Part shown: piece after piece, positions 1,447-53,584 of the stretch
How positions within the stretch are numbered: the stretch's first letter is position 1
Layout of the letters: each line of letters begins with the position of its first letter
Origin: a virus
Lineage: Duplodnaviria; Caudoviricetes
Virus record (IMG/VR): IMGVR_UViG_3300035208_008180
DNA length: 64,000 bases
Direction: 5' to 3' (one strand)
Program-made: the position numbers and the translations under genes
The notes under the pieces: generated by a model
Told to the model about the DNA's origin: nothing
The model's database searches: none
Seen by the model: the letters and a program-made list of their open reading frames with translations, nothing else

Positions 1447-1806
1447 ATGAAAACTTTTCAACAATTTATGGAAATGGCTAGAGTGGCAGCCATAAAACCA
1501 GCTATCAAGTCGCAAATGAATCGAGAGATCAATGCAATTGCCAAAGGGTTTCATGATAAAATACCCCTCTCGCCAATCTTTGCCGTTCTGGAAAAACTGG
1601 GCTACCAAGCCGTGCAAGAAGATGGCACCCCGTGGTCGGGAATGCTGGTCGGCGGGGGAGAGTGCGGCAGCGAACAATCTAGAAGCCAAGTGGCCAACAT
1701 TGACATTGTTCGCAAAGAAGATAATACCCCAATGAACAATGCCCTCTACCTATCCTGGTGTAAAATGCCATCAGGCCGATATGAAGTCGTTGCATACATT
1801 AGTTAA
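1447..1806 (+). CDS. hypothetical protein with capsid-targeting-like N-terminal tag (putative internal virion protein)
   Basis: Starts MKTFQQFME; upstream ATATATA box (1421-1427) and GAGG RBS. Confidence 0.7.
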   Translation: MKTFQQFMEMARVAAIKPAIKSQMNREINAIAKGFHDKIPLSPIFAVLEKLGYQAVQEDGTPWSGMLVGGGECGSEQSRSQVANIDIVRKEDNTPMNNALYLSWCKMPSGRYEVVAYIS

Positions 1807-4485: not shown

Positions 4486-4589
4486 TTATTTCCTGTGTTC
4501 TACAACAGCTTGGCAAAACTTAAACACATCTTCGCCAGACCATCCGTTTTTCGCATATTGTGCCATCAATGACACAAATTGAATATTAG
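4486..4589 (-). pseudogene. C-terminal remnant of an HNH-type endonuclease
   Basis: Frame reads NIQFVSLMAQYAKNGWSGEDVFKFCQAV*, resembling the GNxQFVxxxxNxAK...FC tail of phage HNH endonucleases; abuts the tmRNA 3' end. Confidence 0.45.
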
Positions 4590-4933
4590 TGGAGGTGCTG
4601 GGAATCGCACCCAGGTCACGCACGGCACGCCAATGAGTTTCTACATGTGTATCTTGCCGTTTATGTCGTCTGTATAAGCCACAGCAAGCAAAGGCTCATA
4701 CGACCTATCGGCGTTATCTTAGTTCAATTTACGCCATCTACATTGAACGCAGCCAAATTTTTGACGGGTTTTTGGACGCCTTGGCGAGCTTCCTCAACCC
4801 GTGGCCACTCACGCAGCCAGTGCAACGTAATCGTTAGCAACTAAATTTTTGACCAACTTTTTTACATGGCCTGTTGGTCAGCCATGACATGCAACTCAAG
4901 GGCTAAAACCGTCGTTCGATTCTATTCACCCCC
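4590..4933 (-). ncRNA. ssrA: tmRNA, tag (A)ANDYVALAA
   Basis: 5' GGGGGTG pairs with 3' CACCTCC-A including G3-U; T-arm CTGGG-TGCGATT-CCCAG; resume context TAGTT-GCT; tag ORF 4838-4809; 344 nt; encoded end is A-CTA, not A-CCA. Confidence 0.93.
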
Positions 4934-5972: not shown

Positions 5973-6800
5973 TTAAATATATGCTGCAAATTTCCCTCGA
6001 ACTGCTGCCTGAACCACATCGGGTTTCACCCCCTTAGCCAGCAAATACTTTGCAAACTCCTCTGGGGTGTTTGGCTCTACTGGTTTAGTACGTAAACTTT
6101 TACGCATCTTCTCTTCTGCCACGTTCATAAGAATCTCCAAAAAACTCTTCCCTGATTCTATATCCAACCCCGATCCTCGACCCATTAGGTCCATCAATTT
6201 GAAAACAATCCATATTTTAATCTTGCGATCTGGGGCGAATTTGCCATCAATTCCAATTGATGCCTTAATGTGTCTACTAAGTCCCTTCTCACTAAACTCC
6301 ATATGTTTTGGAACTACAAACCACACAATTTCCTTATCTTCTGGTGATAGGTTGTCCAGAATAGACTGCCACTTATTGCCTAATTTTTTTATTTGCGGCT
6401 CATAATGCTCTGGGTCTTCGTGAGCATGGGCTGTCCATTTCCCTGGTCCGAAGTCAGGTGACATCATCTGTTTTACAGTGTGCCCAGGAAAATCAGACAA
6501 CGGTTTGATGGTATTATCGGGATATTTGTAGCCTGCGGTGGAGGCTTTGCCCACATCATGCAGCCAAGCAAGTATCCTCAAAAGCATTATATCCCCATCG
6601 CTGACCGATGGCAAGTTTGAAAAAGCCTCTTCTCCCCTAGCTTTCTCAAACATTTTCACAGCTACAGGCAGAGCTTTTCTAACAAGCCTTGTGTGTAAAA
6701 ACACAGACCCCTCTGGGTGCCATTGTGCGGACTGTGGCACATTTTTCAAAATATCCCGTAAGCTGCTCATTTCTAACCAATTTTTGAATTCCATTAACAT
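5973..6800 (-). CDS. HD-domain phosphohydrolase (CCA-enzyme-type HD), N-terminally tagged
   Basis: VPQ..WHPEGSVFLHT, LHDVGK, HAHE, KHM, MD motifs; starts MLMEFKNWLE. Confidence 0.8.
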   Translation of the reverse strand: MLMEFKNWLEMSSLRDILKNVPQSAQWHPEGSVFLHTRLVRKALPVAVKMFEKARGEEAFSNLPSVSDGDIMLLRILAWLHDVGKASTAGYKYPDNTIKPLSDFPGHTVKQMMSPDFGPGKWTAHAHEDPEHYEPQIKKLGNKWQSILDNLSPEDKEIVWFVVPKHMEFSEKGLSRHIKASIGIDGKFAPDRKIKIWIVFKLMDLMGRGSGLDIESGKSFLEILMNVAEEKMRKSLRTKPVEPNTPEEFAKYLLAKGVKPDVVQAAVRGKFAAYI

Positions 6801-28464: not shown

Positions 28465-28941
28465 TTAATCCTTCCATTCATAAAGTCTTATTTTTGCAAA
28501 ACCTTCTTCTATCGTAGGTTTTTGCCAATCTTTTATGTGTCGCTCTGCAACCCATAACCAATATGCGTAATCATGCCCTCTATTATCGCTATTGGTTCTA
28601 AGGGCGGCGTGTTCCTCGGGACTCCACAAAGGAAACTCTATGGCCCAAATGGGAACATCCAAACAACTGGCTAAGGCGACCCATCTCTTCCTGCTTCTAA
28701 TTGTGACATTGACACCACGATCAACAATCACATTGCGGCCCATAGCAACGGCAATGTGCAGAATATGATCCTCCACAGATTTATACAAAGGCTTCAGAGC
28801 CTCTTCATAAAGTTTATAATTGCCGCCATGTACTGCATCGACTATAGCATCGTCACTAACAACAACCCAACCTTCCTTGGCTCGTTGATTAGTGTATGTG
28901 CTTTTACCAGACGCTATTGTACCCACTAATACTTCTATCAT
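28465..28941 (-). CDS. P-loop kinase (AAA_33, polynucleotide-kinase-like)
   Basis: GTIASGKST, VSDD, VIVD..N....R..W, P...EGF. Confidence 0.8.
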   Translation of the reverse strand: MIEVLVGTIASGKSTYTNQRAKEGWVVVSDDAIVDAVHGGNYKLYEEALKPLYKSVEDHILHIAVAMGRNVIVDRGVNVTIRSRKRWVALASCLDVPIWAIEFPLWSPEEHAALRTNSDNRGHDYAYWLWVAERHIKDWQKPTIEEGFAKIRLYEWKD

Positions 28942-29903
28942 TTCTCCTCCCATGTCGCATGTGCCCTAAATTCATCTAAATTCTTGGCATTAAAATAACT
29001 CATTGAGCTACGCAGCCCATCAGAGAAACGAGTAACCAAATCTTCCAAAGACTCGCCTTCATACTCCAAAAATCTAACCCTGCCTTCAATATATTTCGGA
29101 TTATTGCGGTATTCTTTTTGAATTTCAAAAGACGCTGAGCCATGATAAACTTTTACAAACTTGCCGTCTTGTTTTACAAGCTCAGCGGGGCTATCAGAAG
29201 TAGCCGCAATGCAACTGCCCAACATTACCATATCTGCCCCTACCGCTATGGCCTTACACATATCTCGGGGCTCTTGAATGCCGCCATCAGCTATCAATAA
29301 TGCATTCTTCTTGACAGAAGCACATTCCATAATACTGGATACCATTCCATAAGAAATACCTGTTGCATTTTTGGTAGTACAAGCTGCCCCGCCCGCAATA
29401 CCTACTCGAATAGCTATAACATGTGGCAAAGAATCCAGCCATTGATAGCATTCCTTGGAAGCAACATTACCCACAATAAAACCTATTTCATCAACCGACA
29501 TTCCATGCCCAAGCGACTCTATGACTTTGGCTAGTTTGGCATTTGCTCCATTGGCAGTATCAATACAAAATATTTTACAACCCACCTCACGTAATGCATG
29601 AAACCTTTCTACAGAATCCCCATTAATACCTATGGCACACGCAGAGCCATGCATATTATCTGATTGTCTTGAGTGTTTCCAACACTCAATTTGTTCATTG
29701 ATTGGCATGAAACGATGAATAATTCCCATGCCACCTAATCTTTCCATTCTAAAAGCAACCGTCCCGTCACAAACATCTTTCATTGGAGCAGCAACAATAG
29801 GCACAGACATAGCCCGAACCTTGGTGCTTATATCATCTCTTGATTCAATATTAGATACCACTCTCGGCACTAATGTAATATCATCAAATCCTAAACTTCT
29901 CAT
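28938..29903 (-). CDS. GMP reductase / IMP dehydrogenase family (no CBS domains)
   Basis: FDDITLVP, GIIHRF, IDTANG, GNVAS, GIAGGAACTT, IADGGI, Y.GSAS, GLRSSMSY. Confidence 0.9.
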   Translation of the reverse strand: MRSLGFDDITLVPRVVSNIESRDDISTKVRAMSVPIVAAPMKDVCDGTVAFRMERLGGMGIIHRFMPINEQIECWKHSRQSDNMHGSACAIGINGDSVERFHALREVGCKIFCIDTANGANAKLAKVIESLGHGMSVDEIGFIVGNVASKECYQWLDSLPHVIAIRVGIAGGAACTTKNATGISYGMVSSIMECASVKKNALLIADGGIQEPRDMCKAIAVGADMVMLGSCIAATSDSPAELVKQDGKFVKVYHGSASFEIQKEYRNNPKYIEGRVRFLEYEGESLEDLVTRFSDGLRSSMSYFNAKNLDEFRAHATWEEK

Positions 29904-44136: not shown

Positions 44137-44574
44137 ATGAACACAACATTTGAACATTTTGTCGAAGAAAAAGCCCAAAACAACAAAGAGCAAATAAAAG
44201 CTATGTTAGGCTCCAATGATTTTGTTTTCTTCTTTGAAAAAAACAAAGAAATTTTTGGTGCCCCCGAAGAGAGCCGACTTATGTTTGCCCGCATGAAAAA
44301 CCCAGACCCCGAAGATAATGACTGGGTTAAAGAAGCTAATTTCAGCGGATTAAACCTCAATAGAGCCCTAAAGGGAGAGAAAACAGAAAGTCTATTTTCC
44401 CATACTGATTTGACCAAAATCAAAATATTGGACCAAGAAGAAGCATATGATAAATTGTCCAGATTAACTTCGGATACAGATAAGATAAAAACCGTTCTTT
44501 CTGACGATGATAATCCGCACCCAGAAGCTCCTGATGCGGCTCCAGGCATCCAACAATTAAAAGACAAAAAATGA
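44137..44574 (+). CDS. hypothetical protein, tagged
   Basis: Starts MNTTFEHFVEE. Confidence 0.65.
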   Translation: MNTTFEHFVEEKAQNNKEQIKAMLGSNDFVFFFEKNKEIFGAPEESRLMFARMKNPDPEDNDWVKEANFSGLNLNRALKGEKTESLFSHTDLTKIKILDQEEAYDKLSRLTSDTDKIKTVLSDDDNPHPEAPDAAPGIQQLKDKK

Positions 44575-45377
44575 ACTTTAGGCTATTTTTAGAGCGAGAA
44601 GAGGGTGCTATAGAATGGGATACATATTATCCCAAGTGGACTCCACGACAACTTGGCGATAGGGGCATGATATCCGCATACGTTTCTAATAAACATATCA
44701 GCATTGACCAAAGCCCCTATCATCCGATGTTGAAAAAAGCCCTAAGGATATTGCTGCGACAAAAGCCACATTTAGCAAACAAGCCCTTGGATTTTGATGG
44801 TTGGTCACCAGGAACATTACAACAATTCTTATATAGCTCAGAACCTATTGCCCCTAAAGATACACTCCCACAATTTATGTATCACGGCACATCCCTCCAT
44901 CGCTGGGAACACATTAAAGAAGATGGCTTAAAACCCCTAATTGCGAGTGGTGGAGAATATGGGGCAGAGCCAATGAGTGCTCCACTTACCAACCCTAATA
45001 ATGTTTACTTATCTGCAACTTTTGGAGCAGCTACCAGATTGGCCGCTTACGACGCTTCCAAAAAAGGAACAGGCGATGTTCCTGTTGTGTTGAAAATTAA
45101 CACCAAACAACTTGATCCTCAAAAAATCAGACCTGATGAAGAGTCTCGTGCTACAACATGGCAAAAAAGTCTGCATGGCTTAAACACTATCGCCTACGAA
45201 GGCGAGATACCACCACAATCCATAGAACTCTATAAAGCTTGGAATCAACAAACGGATAAGTGGGAAAACCCAGGACAGTGGCTAGAGCCAACTGATTTTA
45301 TAGCTCAACAAATGCTTCACAGGACAGGATATAAAGACATTCCCAACAGCACCGGCAAATATAAGTGGGCTAAATAG
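44571..45377 (+). CDS. ADP-ribosyltransferase-fold protein (H-Y type, Tpt1/PARP-like), tagged
   Basis: MYHGTS...I...GL.P, VYLS, VVLKI, IPP..I; starts MNFRLFLE. Confidence 0.7.
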   Translation: MNFRLFLEREEGAIEWDTYYPKWTPRQLGDRGMISAYVSNKHISIDQSPYHPMLKKALRILLRQKPHLANKPLDFDGWSPGTLQQFLYSSEPIAPKDTLPQFMYHGTSLHRWEHIKEDGLKPLIASGGEYGAEPMSAPLTNPNNVYLSATFGAATRLAAYDASKKGTGDVPVVLKINTKQLDPQKIRPDEESRATTWQKSLHGLNTIAYEGEIPPQSIELYKAWNQQTDKWENPGQWLEPTDFIAQQMLHRTGYKDIPNSTGKYKWAK

Positions 45378-45543
45378 CAAAAAACGCTATCGGCCCCAAA
45401 GCCAAACAAAGTAAAAAACAAAATAAAAAAGAAACCCATTCTGTCAAACTCTTCGGCACACCACATTGCCAACTCACTCTACAAAATTGCATAAATCCAA
45501 GTAACATCCATATCAACAACACAATTAAAAGAAAATATGCCAT
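45370..45543 (-). CDS. small membrane protein (57 aa, not in ORF track)
   Basis: GGAGG RBS; MAYFLLIVLLIWMLLG..., two TM segments. Confidence 0.55.
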   Translation of the reverse strand: MAYFLLIVLLIWMLLGFMQFCRVSWQCGVPKSLTEWVSFLFCFLLCLALGPIAFFAI

Positions 45544-45572
45544 TTCGGCCTCCTTTTAATATATATATCAAT

Positions 45573-46229
45573 ATGACATTGCCATTTGAAAACAATAAAG
45601 ACGTAAGAAAGTACCAGTGTTTTGTCTGTGGAGTGCAGTTCTTAGAACTCAACGAAATGACAGAGCACATCAAAGAAAAACACCAAGAAGGCAGAGATTA
45701 TGTGCTTTGTCCTTTGCTCTATTGCAAATGTTGCGTTAGGGATTTAGTTCATCATTTTAAAGCACGTCACCCTTCTCAGCCCCTGCCCAAAAACAGACAA
45801 ATGAAAGCTATTGTATGGAAAGATTTTACCGCCCAAGGAACGGCAAAAAAGAAAAAACAAAGATTTAAAGAGGGTTGGTATGTTTCTACAAAAATGAATA
45901 AGCAATTTTATTTTAGAAGCGGTTGGGAAGAAACTGTATTCGAATGTCTGGACCAAATGAATGAAGTAGCCGCTTATGAAGCAGAGCCTTTTAAAGTTCC
46001 CTACATCTGGGAAGGCACTCAGCACGAATACAATCCCGACATTCTGGTGGTGTTTAATGATGGGCGTAAAGAGGTTTGGGAAATAAAACCATCAGATCAA
46101 ACCTCTTTACAACAAAATAAAAATAAATGGCATGCAGCTAATGAAATGTGTAAAGCTAGAGGATGGGAATTTATTGTAATGACAGAGAAGGGAATCAATC
46201 AATTAAAGAAAAGGGTTGGAAAGAAATGA
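45573..46229 (+). CDS. C2H2 zinc finger plus TnsA-N/T4 gp4-like PD-(D/E)xK endonuclease
   Basis: CFVC..F.....M..H...KH; RSGWE, Y.PD, WEIKP, K..AA...C...GW.F...TE. Confidence 0.8.
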   Translation: MTLPFENNKDVRKYQCFVCGVQFLELNEMTEHIKEKHQEGRDYVLCPLLYCKCCVRDLVHHFKARHPSQPLPKNRQMKAIVWKDFTAQGTAKKKKQRFKEGWYVSTKMNKQFYFRSGWEETVFECLDQMNEVAAYEAEPFKVPYIWEGTQHEYNPDILVVFNDGRKEVWEIKPSDQTSLQQNKNKWHAANEMCKARGWEFIVMTEKGINQLKKRVGKK

Positions 46230-46804
46230 CTTTTCGCATCTGGTTGGAACAGAATCGTCCACAAGTTGAGCCGAATTTTTCAATGCAAGTCTGGGATGCC
46301 TGCATTAAGCACGTTCCTGTTGGTACTACTATTTACCGAGGGTTTAGAATCCATAAAGATTTGCGAAAAATGACCATTCGACAAATTCTCTCACAATCTT
46401 TTAAAAGCAATGCAAAACCCTTCGATCCGTGGACTTTGGATTTTGCCGTAGCTCAAAGATTTGCTGCCGGGGCTCACAGCAATGCTGATGGAACATCAGG
46501 AAGAATGGAAGACACAGCCAGAGTAATTGTATCAGCTAAAATTGTCCAACATAGAAATGTAATAGATTTGAAACAATTTGGCGACAAAATAATGGGCCAC
46601 AACGTAAGCAAAGGCAGTGGCATTAACACCTATTGGCAACCTAGAATGATTGGCAAAGCAACAATCGATGATCGTGATGTGGAAAATGAAATACCCATTT
46701 TAAGAACCGCCTATGCTAACCCTCAACTATTTCCTTTAACTGGATATTGGACAGAAGAAAACGGACAATGGGTGCAAGGAAACAAACCAGCAGCCTTATC
46801 TTAA
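46226..46804 (+). CDS. ADP-ribosyltransferase-like protein (R-S-E type), tagged
   Basis: IYRG, PWT....A..FA, ENEI; starts MTFRIWLE. Confidence 0.55.
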   Translation: MTFRIWLEQNRPQVEPNFSMQVWDACIKHVPVGTTIYRGFRIHKDLRKMTIRQILSQSFKSNAKPFDPWTLDFAVAQRFAAGAHSNADGTSGRMEDTARVIVSAKIVQHRNVIDLKQFGDKIMGHNVSKGSGINTYWQPRMIGKATIDDRDVENEIPILRTAYANPQLFPLTGYWTEENGQWVQGNKPAALS

Positions 46805-47115
46805 AACCCATCAATAAAAATAACAGTCTCTACACCTTCTTTGCTTTCTAAATATACTGTATCTGGCTCTATTGTGTTATCTATCACAAGCTCCAATCGC
46901 CGTTCTCCAAATCCTGTTTCTAATTGCTCCTCAAAACTTGGCATACAATAAAAAGTAGAGGCAATATCACTGGTAGTTCTGAGTTTGGTGGTGCTGAAAC
47001 CACAACGCCCTTTGATGAAATAATGCAATGCATTAATTTTTTCAACTTCAGTGGCGGGTGGATGGTCAACAACTATATTAAAGTCATAAGTTAAAGCGTT
47101 CATGATCTTAGCCAT
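46801..47115 (-). CDS. hypothetical protein
   Basis: overlaps the end of the nucleotidyltransferase gene. Confidence 0.5.
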   Translation of the reverse strand: MAKIMNALTYDFNIVVDHPPATEVEKINALHYFIKGRCGFSTTKLRTTSDIASTFYCMPSFEEQLETGFGERRLELVIDNTIEPDTVYLESKEGVETVIFIDGF

Positions 47116-48317
47116 TCCCTAAATCCCATCTTACGCAACATTTCCTTGGTGTTATGTTGCATAATATGTTGCCCAATTTCTTTGCCTTGTAATTCGGCTG
47201 CCCCTGGAACTTCATCCCTGTTCATCAATTGGTGTGTTCGCAACTGTTGAATAGCACGAGTATCCAGACCATGCAACTGACTCCATGCTTCCAAATCCTC
47301 AGGTGACATATCCCGCTGCCCTTTTCTCAGACTCCACAAGAAGGCAGGATGCTCTTTTAGCTTATCTTGAATATTGGGCAAATGAAGCAAATTGACCAAA
47401 TACACCACATTGTCCACTTCATCATTAGTGTATTTTAATTGATTTAATTTTCTTCTGATCTTTTCCACATCATTGAGCCGCAACAGATGGGCAACCAATA
47501 TAACAGGATTCTTGGTCTCCACATAATCATGGCTGACCACTAACCCTGGAAATACATATTTTTGCAACAATCCTAATTGATGATAGAGACTTACATAACC
47601 CACAACTGATTTAGCAGATTTTAAACCCTTAATAAATTCGTCTCTGACCCGCTCGGGTGCCACAGCCACGCCATTATCGCTTGCCAGCCCATTATTGACT
47701 CGTTTTTCAATAGCCGCACGAGTTGCTTCATCAATGCCTCTGATGTCGCCATGATTTACACGGCAATAGAACCGCACATATCTTAAAACTCTCAGAGCAT
47801 CCTCGCCAAACCGTTGGTCGGGATCACCCACAGTTTTAACACGTCGCTCTTTCAAGTCTTGTAATCCGCCAACCAAATCAACCACTTCATGACTGTCTAA
47901 ATCATAATAAAGAGCGTTGATTGTTAAATCTCTTCTTTCGGCATCGTCTTGGATATGGGAAAATTTATCAGCTACTTGACGACTGCCAGAATCCTTGCGA
48001 AAAGTGGCAATTTCATAATCTTCATTACCAATTGAGGCTATAACCACCCCGAATTGATTTCCTACAGCACCTTTGGTATGGTTAATGCCACCAGCTTTAA
48101 GAATTTCCATTACTTCTGTGGGCTGTGCATTCGTGGCTAAATCGAAATCTTTGGGCTGTTTTCCCAATACTGCATCTCGTACTGCACCTCCCACCAAATA
48201 TAGATGTTTGCCCGATTTTTTAAATACTCTATGAATAACATGAATATCCTCTGGCAAATTGATTGACAGGTGCATTCGCACTTCTTTACTTTCTAAAAAT
48301 TGCATAAAACTAACCAT
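47100..48317 (-). CDS. cca: class II tRNA nucleotidyltransferase (CCA-adding-like), tagged, no HD domain
   Basis: VGGAVRD, DFD, EIATFR, RRDLTINA, EDALR.LR, ER...E; starts MVSFMQFLE. Confidence 0.88.
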   Translation of the reverse strand: MVSFMQFLESKEVRMHLSINLPEDIHVIHRVFKKSGKHLYLVGGAVRDAVLGKQPKDFDLATNAQPTEVMEILKAGGINHTKGAVGNQFGVVIASIGNEDYEIATFRKDSGSRQVADKFSHIQDDAERRDLTINALYYDLDSHEVVDLVGGLQDLKERRVKTVGDPDQRFGEDALRVLRYVRFYCRVNHGDIRGIDEATRAAIEKRVNNGLASDNGVAVAPERVRDEFIKGLKSAKSVVGYVSLYHQLGLLQKYVFPGLVVSHDYVETKNPVILVAHLLRLNDVEKIRRKLNQLKYTNDEVDNVVYLVNLLHLPNIQDKLKEHPAFLWSLRKGQRDMSPEDLEAWSQLHGLDTRAIQQLRTHQLMNRDEVPGAAELQGKEIGQHIMQHNTKEMLRKMGFREWLRS

Positions 48318-48336
48318 ACCTTATATATAATATAAA
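48318..48336. promoter_or_regulatory. 19-bp divergent spacer with central TATATATA box
   Basis: ACCTTATATATAATATAAA between two back-to-back ATGs of tagged genes. Confidence 0.55.
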
Positions 48337-48981
48337 ATGAACTTTAGAAATTGGATAGAGCACAAATGGTACGAATTTAAAGATACCGTGGAATTATATC
48401 ACGGCACCTCTAGTGCCTTGCTTCCAATTATTAAAACGAATGGATTGGTGCCACCTGATGAGTGTTTAGAGTCATATGCTATTAAAATAATCAAATCATA
48501 TGGAGTTGCCGCAAGCCCGCAATTAATGGAATGGATTCACAAATACGCAATTTCATCAAGAGCTAATGAACCAAACAACAAAATAGCTAACGTAATTTAT
48601 TTAACTCCCAAATTCGAGAATGCAAAAAACTACGCAAAATCCACCCATAAATTTGGGGGAGAAATGGCGGCTGACATTTGGCGAGCTATCAATGTAATTG
48701 AAAGCAAAAAAAGAGGTTTGCCAAAAATGCAGGAAATTATACCTCCCATTTACAAAGAATCTCATCCTGTAGTATTAGAAGTAGAAATCCCATCTAAATG
48801 GATGAATACATATCATGATTTAGCACAACGATATAAAGATGCATTAGACTACTGGGCAACCTTGAAATCTAAGCCAGATGTTCACGATTTTATGGAGAAA
48901 GAATTTGGTCGCTTTGAAATAAGAGTAGAAGAGACTATTCCTGCGTCAATGATAAGAAAAATTCACGCAATAATGTCCTGA
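48337..48981 (+). CDS. ADP-ribosyltransferase-fold protein (H-Y-E type), tagged
   Basis: LYHGTS...I...GL.P, IYLT....A..YA, VVLEV, FEIRV...IP; starts MNFRNWIE. Confidence 0.7.
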   Translation: MNFRNWIEHKWYEFKDTVELYHGTSSALLPIIKTNGLVPPDECLESYAIKIIKSYGVAASPQLMEWIHKYAISSRANEPNNKIANVIYLTPKFENAKNYAKSTHKFGGEMAADIWRAINVIESKKRGLPKMQEIIPPIYKESHPVVLEVEIPSKWMNTYHDLAQRYKDALDYWATLKSKPDVHDFMEKEFGRFEIRVEETIPASMIRKIHAIMS

Positions 48982-49613
48982 AATATCTTGTGATTCTCTG
49001 AATCTTTCCCTGGGATGGCAAACACTACGTTTTCAAACACTTTGTCAAATTCACCACCCTTCAAAAACACCTTAAATGTAGTAGCAATCATGGCGGGAGA
49101 ATTATTAAATATTCCACATCCCCATGCTCCAAGAATTAAATGTTTGTGGTTGTGAACAGCGGCAATTTCAAGAATGCGACGAATACGATTCACAATCAGC
49201 AAAGTGTCTTTTGGCTCGGGATTAACCACCGCTGGCATGGAAATTACAGCTACCGAATAAGGATCAACAGGGTCTAATTGCTTGTCTTTATTCACCACCA
49301 CATTAGAGCAATATATAGCATCTAGTCCATTGCGAGGAAGAGGATAGTATTTATGAATCTCAGGAATATCTAACAATTCTGGCAAATTGGAACGACGAAA
49401 AAGGTCTTCTTCTTGAGTGCGAATCGGCATACGCAAATTGCGAACTGATTCGTAGCCCCCACCAGGACGCTTATGAGAAGCAAAATTTAAACAACAAGCG
49501 TGGTCAAACTCAGCGGCTGTTGTGAATGTGTCATTATCAACAACTGAGAATTGTGTCTGCTCCACCACAGGAGATGGCACAAATGAGAACCCCTCTGAAT
49601 ATAATTGAATCAT
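48963..49613 (-). CDS. bacterial-type PARG macrodomain (TIGR02452/DUF2263)
   Basis: LNFAS...PGGG...QEE.L.R.S.L, LILGAWGCG.F.N, VFAI. Confidence 0.9.
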   Translation of the reverse strand: MIQLYSEGFSFVPSPVVEQTQFSVVDNDTFTTAAEFDHACCLNFASHKRPGGGYESVRNLRMPIRTQEEDLFRRSNLPELLDIPEIHKYYPLPRNGLDAIYCSNVVVNKDKQLDPVDPYSVAVISMPAVVNPEPKDTLLIVNRIRRILEIAAVHNHKHLILGAWGCGIFNNSPAMIATTFKVFLKGGEFDKVFENVVFAIPGKDSENHKIFQDIIA

Positions 49614-52817: not shown

Positions 52818-53171
52818 ATGAGTTTTAGACAATTTGTAGAAGATGCTGCGGCTTGGGATGCTTTTCAAGACGTTTTCTTTGTTGGAGAATACGAAGGGCA
52901 AGCAAGTGATTTCTATTGCTGGCTTCGCCAACGCTGGAGTGCCAATCAATCCCCTCAAGATTATGATTACAAAGGATTGGAAAGATTGTTTGCTGATTGG
53001 AAAAAAAGCACAGTTCGTGGTGCATGGTGTGCAAAAATGGATCGAAGTCGAGATCGCAAACGAAGAAAAGACTTCGGCCCAGGCAAATATTGGGCACCTA
53101 CATCAGCAGGTGTCTTCCTAAATAAAAACTTTGTAAAAGGATGGAGAGGTATCAATCCAGCAAACCCATGA
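52818..53171 (+). CDS. hypothetical protein, tagged
   Basis: Starts MSFRQFVE; CTATATA 5 nt upstream. Confidence 0.65.
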   Translation: MSFRQFVEDAAAWDAFQDVFFVGEYEGQASDFYCWLRQRWSANQSPQDYDYKGLERLFADWKKSTVRGAWCAKMDRSRDRKRRKDFGPGKYWAPTSAGVFLNKNFVKGWRGINPANP

Positions 53172-53584
53172 AATTCAAACAATGGCTTGAATCCATATAC
53201 TATCACGGCACCACACCCGAAAACGCCGAATCTATCCTAAAAAATGGCATCGACCCAGATCGCTATAAAAGCGGGATGTTCAGAGGATTCTACCTTACAC
53301 CAAACCCAACTTACTTCAATGGCTTTAGCGGGCCAAAGAAAACAATTTTGGCCATAGAAATTGATGACTCGCAAATACTCGATGTAGAAAGCGTCAAGGA
53401 TGAGGATTTGCTGCCAATTGATCCTCACTTCAAAATGATGAGCCCAATGTATAAAAATACTATGATTATGAAGTTGGCTCTTGAAAAAGGATATTCTGGC
53501 GTCAAAAACGGAAAAGAAGTTGTTCTTTTTACTGACAGAGCAATCCGCTCTATTCGACCCATAAATTCCAGTCATTCAAAGTAG
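53168..53584 (+). CDS. ADP-ribosyltransferase-fold protein (PARP-like H-Y-E), tagged
   Basis: YYHGT...A.SI...GI, GFYLT, GY.GV....EVVLF; starts MKFKQWLE. Confidence 0.7.
   Translation: MKFKQWLESIYYHGTTPENAESILKNGIDPDRYKSGMFRGFYLTPNPTYFNGFSGPKKTILAIEIDDSQILDVESVKDEDLLPIDPHFKMMSPMYKNTMIMKLALEKGYSGVKNGKEVVLFTDRAIRSIRPINSSHSK

Follow-up and report, generated by a model that had tools for sequence, protein, structure and literature searches.

The 64,000-nucleotide stretch of viral DNA analysed here (the window; Duplodnaviria, Caudoviricetes; IMG/VR record IMGVR_UViG_3300035208_008180) encodes two proteins that are predicted to act on the 3' ends of transfer RNA. One is a class II tRNA nucleotidyltransferase (NTase) and the other, encoded 40 kb away, is a stand-alone HD protein of the type that is fused to CCA-adding enzymes elsewhere; each begins with a short peptide tag that recurs on many proteins of the same phage (Table 1). 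The window corresponds to bases 128001-192000 of contig C200 (340,072 bp, 40.5% GC), which was placed in a 6.25-Mb bin consisting mostly of DNA of 65-70% GC. Because its GC content is so far from that of the bulk of the bin, C200 is recognised as a T4-like huge-phage contig that was wrongly binned with a bacterium. Its gene content includes 65 tRNA genes, a transfer-messenger RNA (tmRNA), an RtcB ligase and a T4-type Pnkp. A second low-GC contig, C242 (97 kb), carries a prohead protease (Peptidase_S77, 5.9e-25), a scaffold gene and a Gp23-type capsid gene (7.6e-86), and since the peptide tag and the GC content are common to both contigs they are treated here as one genome, presumably that of a single phage. 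A megablast search with the 5 kb around the NTase gene found no match in 50,697 GenBank phage records, and the best GenBank relatives of the NTase itself are encoded by unannotated metagenomic phages of 595-642 kb (31-40% identity).

Table 1. Features of the NTase and HD loci and associated genes. Positions are those of the window unless C200 is named.
Feature	Position	Strand	Description and basis
Class II tRNA NTase, predicted CCA-adding	47100..48317	-	405 aa, no HD domain; Pfam, PDB match, fold, motifs
NTase N-terminal tag	48291..48317	-	residues 1-9, one-residue-longer variant M-x-x-F-x-x-F-L-E; kept in clade homologues
NTase C-terminal tag-like peptide	47103..47129	-	last 9 residues; G-F-R-E-W-L core, without closing Glu
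Stand-alone HD phosphoesterase, CCA-enzyme type	5973..6800	-	invariant HD residues; AlphaFold2 (AF2) model; fold; hhalign; fusions in relatives
HD protein N-terminal tag	6771..6794	-	M-E-F-K-N-W-L-E; next residue is Met, where untagged orthologues start
tmRNA gene without encoded CCA, likely substrate	4587..4933	-	ARAGORN; Rfam RF00023, 119.6 bits; 3' end acceptor-A-C-T
Divergent spacer, 19 bp	48318..48336		TATATAAT-type palindromic box, common to the NTase gene and the tagged ADP-ribosyltransferase (ART)-like gene 48337-48981 (+)
P-loop kinase AAA_33, polynucleotide kinase (PNK)-like	28465..28953	-	162 aa, untagged; PF13671, 1.3e-12
RtcB ligase	C200:62452-63558	-	8e-87; untagged
T4-type Pnkp	C200:244826-245764	-	312 aa, P-loop kinase plus DxDxT phosphatase; untagged

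The NTase matches the PolyA_pol head domain (PF01743, 1.1e-35) and PolyA_pol_RNAbd (1.3e-4), and a Pfam scan of the entire protein found no HD match, in agreement with a preliminary description of the window in which this gene was read as an NTase without an HD domain. Motifs A (GGAVRD..DFD), B (RRD) and D (EDALR) are invariant across an alignment of 23 sequences. In the AF2 model (predicted local distance difference test, pLDDT, 89.1) residues ~11-396 can be superposed on CCA enzymes that have the complete head-neck-body-tail architecture, with fold matches to 4x4w (Z 26.6, 344 residues) and 1miv (Z 24.6). A search of PDB sequences ranks the human mitochondrial CCA enzyme first (110 bits, residues 23-334), in an alignment that runs through the neck and body; Escherichia coli poly(A) polymerase (PAP) scores 104 bits and aligns only to residue 187, that is, over the head and part of the neck.

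Scores of this kind, whether from sequence or from fold, cannot tell a CCA enzyme from a bacterial PAP, and some of them weigh against a CCA-adding function. In NCBIfam the pcnB subfamily model TIGR01942 gives the NTase its highest score (170.7 bits, cut-off 305.65), ahead of the CCA equivalog (151 bits) and of NF008634 (pcnB; 117.8 bits, cut-off 702), with every NCBIfam score falling below its cut-off, and in the fold search E. coli PAP (Z 25.0) is not separated from the best CCA enzyme. Published sequence rules were therefore applied (PMC2910056). By these rules, PAPs are characterised by the signature [LIV][LIV]G[RK][RK]Fx[LIV]h[HQL][LIV] between motif A and the flexible loop; a downstream E-R-x3-E-x3-h-h motif marks enzymes of the CC or CCA type, and small-R-x3-E marks PAPs and A-adding enzymes; and the flexible loop between motifs A and B, which is required for the addition of A76, is deleted (10-12 residues) in CC-adding enzymes. 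A regular-expression search for the PAP signature was negative in the phage NTase and throughout its clade, the corresponding stretch lacking both basic residues, so that the case named in the preliminary description as fatal to its proposal, an enzyme that is really a PAP, finds no support in the sequence. The downstream motif is E222-R223-x3-E227, in which both glutamates are invariant and Arg223 is present in at least 90% of 23 homologues. The control loci from Erwinia, Pantoea, Pseudomonas, Zhongshania and Orrella are all among eight rows positive for the PAP signature; A-R-x3-E is found in six of these eight, namely those in which the downstream motif was detected, and the PAP controls form a separate clade in a maximum-likelihood tree (support 97).

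The same rules bear on whether the enzyme adds all three nucleotides. The spacer from TFR to RRD is 20 residues long, as first reported, against 23 in both the human and the Agrobacterium enzymes, and from this length a CC-only or A-only specificity had been thought possible. That suggestion now looks unlikely, in that the loop is just three residues short of those enzymes, its Arg113 is invariant in the 23-sequence alignment, and the E-R-x3-E motif is present. A second class II NTase gene, C242:87752-89167 (+), could nevertheless be proposed as a partner for an enzyme of restricted specificity. Its product (471 aa) has an intact EDxxR motif and a tag-like N-terminus, M-x-x-S-F-x-x-Y-V; however, the DxD metal ligands are replaced by E-x-H and RRD by G-R-D, which makes it an unlikely active partner and probably an inactive or re-purposed tRNA-binding paralogue. 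It is therefore highly improbable that the window NTase is a PAP, or that it adds only CC or only A in partnership with the C242 protein, even though the pcnB score, the near parity of E. coli PAP in sequence and fold comparisons, the somewhat shorter loop and the second gene would all fit such a reading. By the published rules it is likely to be a full CCA-adding enzyme.

None of the 66 tRNA and tmRNA genes of C200 encodes a CCA end. This had been pointed out for the tmRNA and is now seen to hold for all 65 tRNAs as well. The discriminator base is followed by C at position 74 in 65 of the 66 genes and by T at position 75 in 63 of them. As CCA is absent from every one of these genes, all of the phage tRNAs and the tmRNA depend on CCA addition, which makes this phage a clean example of one whose entire complement of tRNA-like genes has been placed under that requirement. 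The NTase would build or complete C-C-A on these 66 transcripts, whose genes stop at discriminator-C-T, the addition of C-A being sufficient if C74 outlasts 3' processing, and it would also restore CCA ends after trimming or damage. Jumbo-phage CCA enzymes have been proposed earlier as repair factors (PMC7824862). As a primary role for the NTase, completing the CCA-less tRNAs of the phage itself is simpler than repairing toxin damage, and the two are compatible. The tRNA genes lie in arrays at 13-76 kb and 231-241 kb of C200, and the tmRNA gene is preceded by its own sigma-70-like promoter. The fixed C-U trailer could be a determinant of 3' processing; it could also mimic the pairing of C74-C75 with the L15 loop of RNase P RNA (C-G plus a U-G wobble).

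The HD gene can be read as 275 codons from position 6800 or as 273 from a second ATG at 6794. The latter is most likely the true start, giving a canonical tag, and the 273-aa form is the one present in a public protein collection. The protein contains the block VPQ..WHPEG.V..HT followed by the HD dyad, and H28, H36, H81-D82, H127-E128, H166 and D204 are invariant in 14 close homologues (40-100% identity); H36, H81-D82 and D204 supply the H ... HD ... D metal-ligand pattern of HD-superfamily phosphohydrolases. This family was previously unannotated and escapes Pfam, a scan of which gave no match at E<=0.01 (HDIG, E 0.049). Searches of PDB sequences, with the single sequence and with a profile hidden Markov model, returned chance-level matches only (EF-hand, 5'-nucleotidase), and Foldseek alone gave E 0.02 or worse for the AF2 model (pLDDT 84.6). 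As these searches were uninformative, the identity of the protein was established solely by exhaustive structure alignment and profile-profile comparison.

When the model was aligned exhaustively to 48,161 PDB representatives, its all-helical fold matched HD and phosphodiesterase (PDE) structures with Z scores of 7-11. It is matched best by the C-terminal half of 3wfo (residues 225-448; Z 11.3, 173 residues, root-mean-square deviation 3.5), a 525-residue class II NTase, the CC-adding enzyme of Aquifex aeolicus; PDEs and GppA follow at ~8.6, and two other class II NTases at 7.5 and 6.1. One phage NTase-HD protein aligns with 3wfo throughout its HD region. A profile of the HD family, searched against 1.84 billion cluster representatives, gave 427 matches, the remote ones among which include NTase-HD proteins with the HD block at about residues 245-315. 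The HD parts of ten viral NTase-HD proteins were aligned for profile-profile comparison, and hhalign matched them to the HD family at 99.5% (E 2e-22, 139 columns) with all catalytic blocks in register. At the profile level the block PQ-x-P-x-W-HPEG-x-V-x-x-HT is common to the HD family and to the HD domains of CCA enzymes, and three of the four NTase-HD partner proteins that were scanned have NF008137, 'multifunctional CCA addition/repair protein', as their best NCBIfam match. The hhalign result substantiates the original proposal that the distant HD protein belongs to the type fused to multifunctional CCA enzymes. A co-transcription of the HD gene with the tmRNA gene 1 kb downstream was considered and found to be unsupported, the two having separate sigma-70-like promoters and an HNH gene lying between them on the other strand.

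What such a domain may do is indicated by its characterised relatives. The HD domain of E. coli Cca is a 2',3'-cyclic phosphodiesterase, 2'-nucleotidase and phosphatase (Yakunin et al. 2004, PMID 15210699, cited in PMC2190708), an HD end-healing phosphoesterase is known in Runella HD-Pnk (PMC6097658), and 'HD-like' phosphatases are mentioned for a few jumbo phages (PMC7824862). The phage HD protein would, by analogy, strip 2',3'-cyclic, 3'- or 2'-phosphates from RNA 3' ends and leave a 3'-OH that could be used by the NTase or by an ATP-dependent ligase.

The tag in itself is no evidence for a link between the two enzymes, because at least 26 other proteins carry it. Support that is independent of the tag comes from the recurrent fusion of the HD family to the NTase family. 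Among the best 150 of the 427 cluster representatives, which were examined for fusions, 11 are HD(N)-NTase(C) proteins of ~450-760 aa, the NTase halves of which score 98-316 bits against the family profile of the window NTase; three PNK-type kinase (AAA_33)-HD fusions and one HD-Rnl1 ligase fusion are found in the same set. Two IMG/VR loci, L025 and L027, likewise encode HD-NTase fusions, and the NTase and HD modules occur together in polyproteins, one of which (L032) joins NMNAT-like, NTase (404 bits to the family profile), DUF5661, AAA_33 kinase and HD modules and another (L054) NMNAT-like, NTase and HD modules. The giant open reading frames (ORFs) of IMG/VR to which these belong (L032:2246-7168, L054:2-4552, L049:1-3978, L036 and L042) range from 1,300 to 5,200 codons; L049, L036, L042 and L054 carry subsets of the L032 modules, and an F-x-x-[FY]-[IL]-x-E peptide precedes the NTase module. 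In the NTase tree the stand-alone tagged clade (support 99) and the HD-NTase fusion clade (support 100) lie together inside a phage superclade (support 98), which means that one fusion or one fission separates them. The notion of a repair enzyme split in two thus stands in so far as its modules are separate genes, linked by the fusions of their relatives, while the direction of the change is not given by the tree.

All of the fusion partners seen act on RNA ends, and on that ground the HD protein is best read as a healer of RNA 3' ends, which is also its probable role; its association with CCA enzymes, PNK-type kinases and an Rnl1 ligase marks the whole family as an RNA end-healing module. A Pfam scan of ten fusion proteins found no partner from signalling or nucleotide metabolism, about 27 further longer representatives lying outside that scan. 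The two genes might instead be functionally independent, the NTase simply maturing CCA-less RNAs in the infected cell, for which the 66 transcripts provide an obvious housekeeping load, and the HD protein hydrolysing 2',3'-cyclic nucleoside monophosphates, cyclic oligonucleotide defence signals, alarmones or the 3'-pyrophosphate placed on the tRNA CCA by toxSAS/CapRel-type toxins. HD enzymes are catalytically promiscuous, the fold matches that follow 3wfo are cyclic-nucleotide PDEs, GppA/PPX and HD-GYP proteins, most phage HD enzymes were assigned counter-nucleotide roles in a survey of jumbo phages (PMC7824862), and the two genes lie far apart under different types of promoter. An action of the HD protein on free nucleotide signals or on pyrophosphorylated CCA ends is possible. 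Nevertheless, its closest profile homologues are HD domains inside CCA enzymes, and the fusions of its family are repeatedly to enzymes of RNA ends rather than to those of signalling, so that full independence of the two genes appears unlikely.

The tag has the canonical form M-x-F-[RK]-x-[WF]-[LIV]-E. Both genes had been described as tagged and both are, the HD protein canonically when read from 6794 and the NTase in its longer variant. When ORFs were screened for a strict form of the tag, namely M followed by 1-3 residues and F-x-x-[WF]-[LIVM]-E, 28 had it at the N-terminus (18 on C200, nine on C242 and one on C224) where ~0.2 would be expected, and the high-GC contigs (~5 Mb) had none; the internal frequency of the core pattern in proteins is 8e-5 per residue. 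Its codons vary synonymously (TTT/TTC, four Leu codons, AGA/AGG/CGC), which shows that selection acts on the peptide. Five of the 14 HD orthologues start at the Met that directly follows the closing Glu of the tag, and the DNA upstream of one such untagged orthologue encodes no tag. The tag is thus a modular, detachable element. A tag-like peptide, F-[RK]-x-[FY]-[LMFV]-E, also stands at the module junction in 11 of 12 fusions examined (HD-NTase and HD-Rnl1), so that the HD-NTase proteins have the appearance of tag-HD-tag-NTase, a simple rule by which giant phages could shuffle cargo modules. Both ends of the NTase are modelled with low confidence (pLDDT below 50 for residues 1-9 and 401-405), and everything before residue ~11 and after ~396 falls outside the aligned fold.

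The tag is best read, on balance, as a signal for capsid targeting that would be removed by proteolysis. In the ten-residue capsid targeting sequence (CTS) of T4, targeting depends on residues 4 and 7 and cleavage by gp21 on residues 8 and 10, and the T4 protein Alt is processed at both ends (PMC9026906). An aromatic pair at i and i+3 and a closing Glu fit this functional map, a T4-type protease, scaffold and capsid module is present in the genome, and ART-fold proteins are among the tagged set, as they are in T4. Two residues of the tag, aromatic or hydrophobic and three apart, would dock the protein to the prohead core, the T4-type prohead protease would cut after the closing Glu, and both enzymes would be carried inside the capsid and reach the next host together with the DNA. 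Two small proteins, one encoded in the window at 1447-1806 (+) and one at C242:84676-84990 (-), have a leader of the form M-K-T-aromatic-Q-x-F-hydrophobic-... and are candidate internal proteins. Their first ten residues closely resemble the leader of the T4 internal proteins.

Several observations sit less easily with capsid loading. The tag ends in [WF]-[LIV]-E where T4 has F-I-A-E, and so departs from the strict [LI]-x-E rule for cleavage; a hydrophobic-x-E ending is obtained only if an aromatic P3 residue is accepted. The capsid protein has an I-N-E site near residue 46. The tag marks a large number of proteins unrelated to these two enzymes, and is missing from RtcB, the T4-type Pnkp and the AAA_33 kinase, so that of the RNA-repair enzymes the 3'-end pair alone would be shipped, were the tag a packaging signal. 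Many tagged genes, moreover, have an unusual start region, in which a TATATAAT-type box lies just 4-9 nt before the ATG and no Shine-Dalgarno sequence is present, and a peptide resembling the tag stands at the C-terminus of the NTase, which is not where a signal of the T4 type, being N-terminal, is expected. The tag could then mark proteins for degradation or set their timing, dock them to some other phage assembly or compartment, or help in the translation of nearly leaderless mRNAs, and neither enzyme would be virion cargo. This is a less likely but appreciable possibility; the synonymous variation of the codons under fixed residues, the start of untagged orthologues at the next Met and the recurrence of the peptide at fusion junctions all count against it, and Alt provides a precedent for propeptides at both ends.

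The C-terminal peptide had been described as a second tag-like copy, and its conservation within the clade upholds that description. The sequence G-F-[RK]-E-W-L is kept at the C-terminus of a 15-member NTase clade, down to 41% identity, and S-F-Q-D-[YF]-[LM] ends several of the HD-NTase fusions. The model shows this C-terminal peptide as a short helix at the end of the chain, with low pLDDT and lying outside the fold. A broken tagged gene downstream was considered as its source and dismissed, since the next ORF, which has no tag, is in a different frame and overlaps by ATGA, and conservation across the clade argues against both chance and such a relic. The peptide may be a second docking peptide, like that at the C-terminus of Alt, or may simply be the last helix of the NTase family.

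Taken together, the evidence favours, with a probability of roughly 0.55, a CCA-adding enzyme and a detached HD module that are both tagged for the capsid. Two further results weigh against it: the HD protein found no match by tblastn in the 50,697 GenBank phage records, and only one of five IMG/VR fragments with a stand-alone HD gene also holds an NTase, these records being 16-44% complete. The gene neighbourhoods of two HD relatives contain no conserved RNA-repair neighbours. A more specific and rather doubtful extension is that the two enzymes constitute a tRNA 3'-end rescue kit that is injected with the DNA and that, before any phage gene is expressed, clears and rebuilds tRNA ends on which abortive-infection toxins of the host have acted (by leaving a cyclic phosphate, trimming the CCA or possibly adding a 3'-pyrophosphate to it), sister lineages making the same kit as a tag-HD-tag-NTase chain or as longer polyproteins cut at the tags by the prohead protease. 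We know of no pre-made counter-defence against tRNA-targeting immunity that has been demonstrated so far. If the tag does load heads, this phage ships RNA-repair enzymes with its DNA, beyond the anti-restriction proteins and ADP-ribosyltransferases.

Some features of the surroundings may be recorded here. Boxes of the TATATAAT type are found no more than 22 nt from the ATG of 21 of 459 ORFs of at least 100 aa on C200 and eight of 113 on C242, against 0.8% of random windows, and about half of these 29 ORFs are tagged. Nearly leaderless transcripts are suggested for genes in which such a box, of the (C)TATATAAT type, ends 4-9 nt ahead of the start codon and a Shine-Dalgarno sequence is lacking. 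Tagged proteins with a Y-H-G-T block surround the NTase, at 44571-45377, 46226-46804, 48337-48981 and 53168-53584 (+) and at 48963-49613 (-), and were read in the preliminary description as having the ADP-ribosyltransferase fold; the product of 48337-48981 has a weak PARP/DarT-like neighbour in an Atlas search, and an untagged microbial PARG-type macrodomain gene (Pfam 1.5e-12) overlaps one Y-H-G-T gene tail to tail. Assignment of 48337-48981 as a KptA/Tpt1 RNA 2'-phosphotransferase was rejected, its sole support being a 22-residue NCBIfam match at E 0.16, with the Atlas result pointing to a PARP/DarT-like ART. About 0.9 kb from the NTase, 45537-46229 (+) encodes a Zn-finger and TnsA-like endonuclease, a homologue of which (50% identity, E 5e-77), at L024:8996-9658 and in the same position in L020-L023 and L028, lies ~350 bp upstream of the stand-alone HD gene of these distant IMG/VR phages. 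The endonuclease gene may be mobile and move together with such cargo genes. As regards other RNA-repair genes, the AAA_33 kinase of the window is a possible 5'-end healing partner, and Rnl2-type ligases are found on other low-GC contigs (C226, C144 and C137), which may or may not belong to this phage. The Rnl1 family was not found in the bin by a search that also missed it in control genomes.

Comparison with known systems shows that each part of this arrangement has a counterpart. Both catalytic modules resemble those of E. coli Cca, the NTase in motifs A-E and E-R-x3-E and the HD protein by homology, and the proposed logic, in which a 3' phosphate is cleared and CCA then rebuilt, is also the same. 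In the phage, however, the modules are two genes 40 kb apart, each with a phage tag; the NTase has its own non-HD body and tail, as do the Bacillus and human enzymes; the HD protein has an insertion of ~25 residues and is missed by Pfam; and in its fused relatives the order is reversed, with HD first. Stand-alone class II NTases predicted to restore CCA are found in tRNA-rich large phages (survey, PMC7824862) and are 27-40% identical to the window NTase, annotated examples being those of Aeromonas phage 65, Brevundimonas and Caulobacter jumbo phages and Mycobacterium phage ScoobyDoobyDoo. Among published accounts of phage tRNA NTases, none was found with a capsid-targeting-type tag, a conserved C-terminal look-alike peptide or a partner HD gene. 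In Runella HD-Pnk the HD domain is a 2',3'-phosphoesterase joined to a 5'-OH polynucleotide kinase for the healing of RNA and DNA ends (PMC6097658), and relatives of the phage HD protein are likewise fused to P-loop PNK-type kinases, although in those the kinase comes first and HD second, and the HD protein of the window stands alone.

The T4 CTS of internal proteins and Alt (Mullaney and Black 1996; reviewed in PMC3012670 and PMC9026906) and the tag are both short N-terminal peptides borne by proteins that are otherwise unrelated, each combining a pair of hydrophobic or aromatic residues, spaced three apart, with a Glu at its end, and both systems have a T4-type prohead protease and ART-fold enzymes among the cargo or tagged set. 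The phage tag differs in that one residue fewer separates its aromatic pair from the Glu, in marking ~28 proteins where T4 marks a handful, and in being placed on RNA-end enzymes. Phage CCA enzymes, end healing by HD domains and capsid targeting sequences in T4 are thus all known singly. What is new is their combination: a detached HD family of the CCA-enzyme type, its repeated fusion to the NTase with a tag at the joint, capsid-type tags on both proteins, and 66 CCA-less genes.

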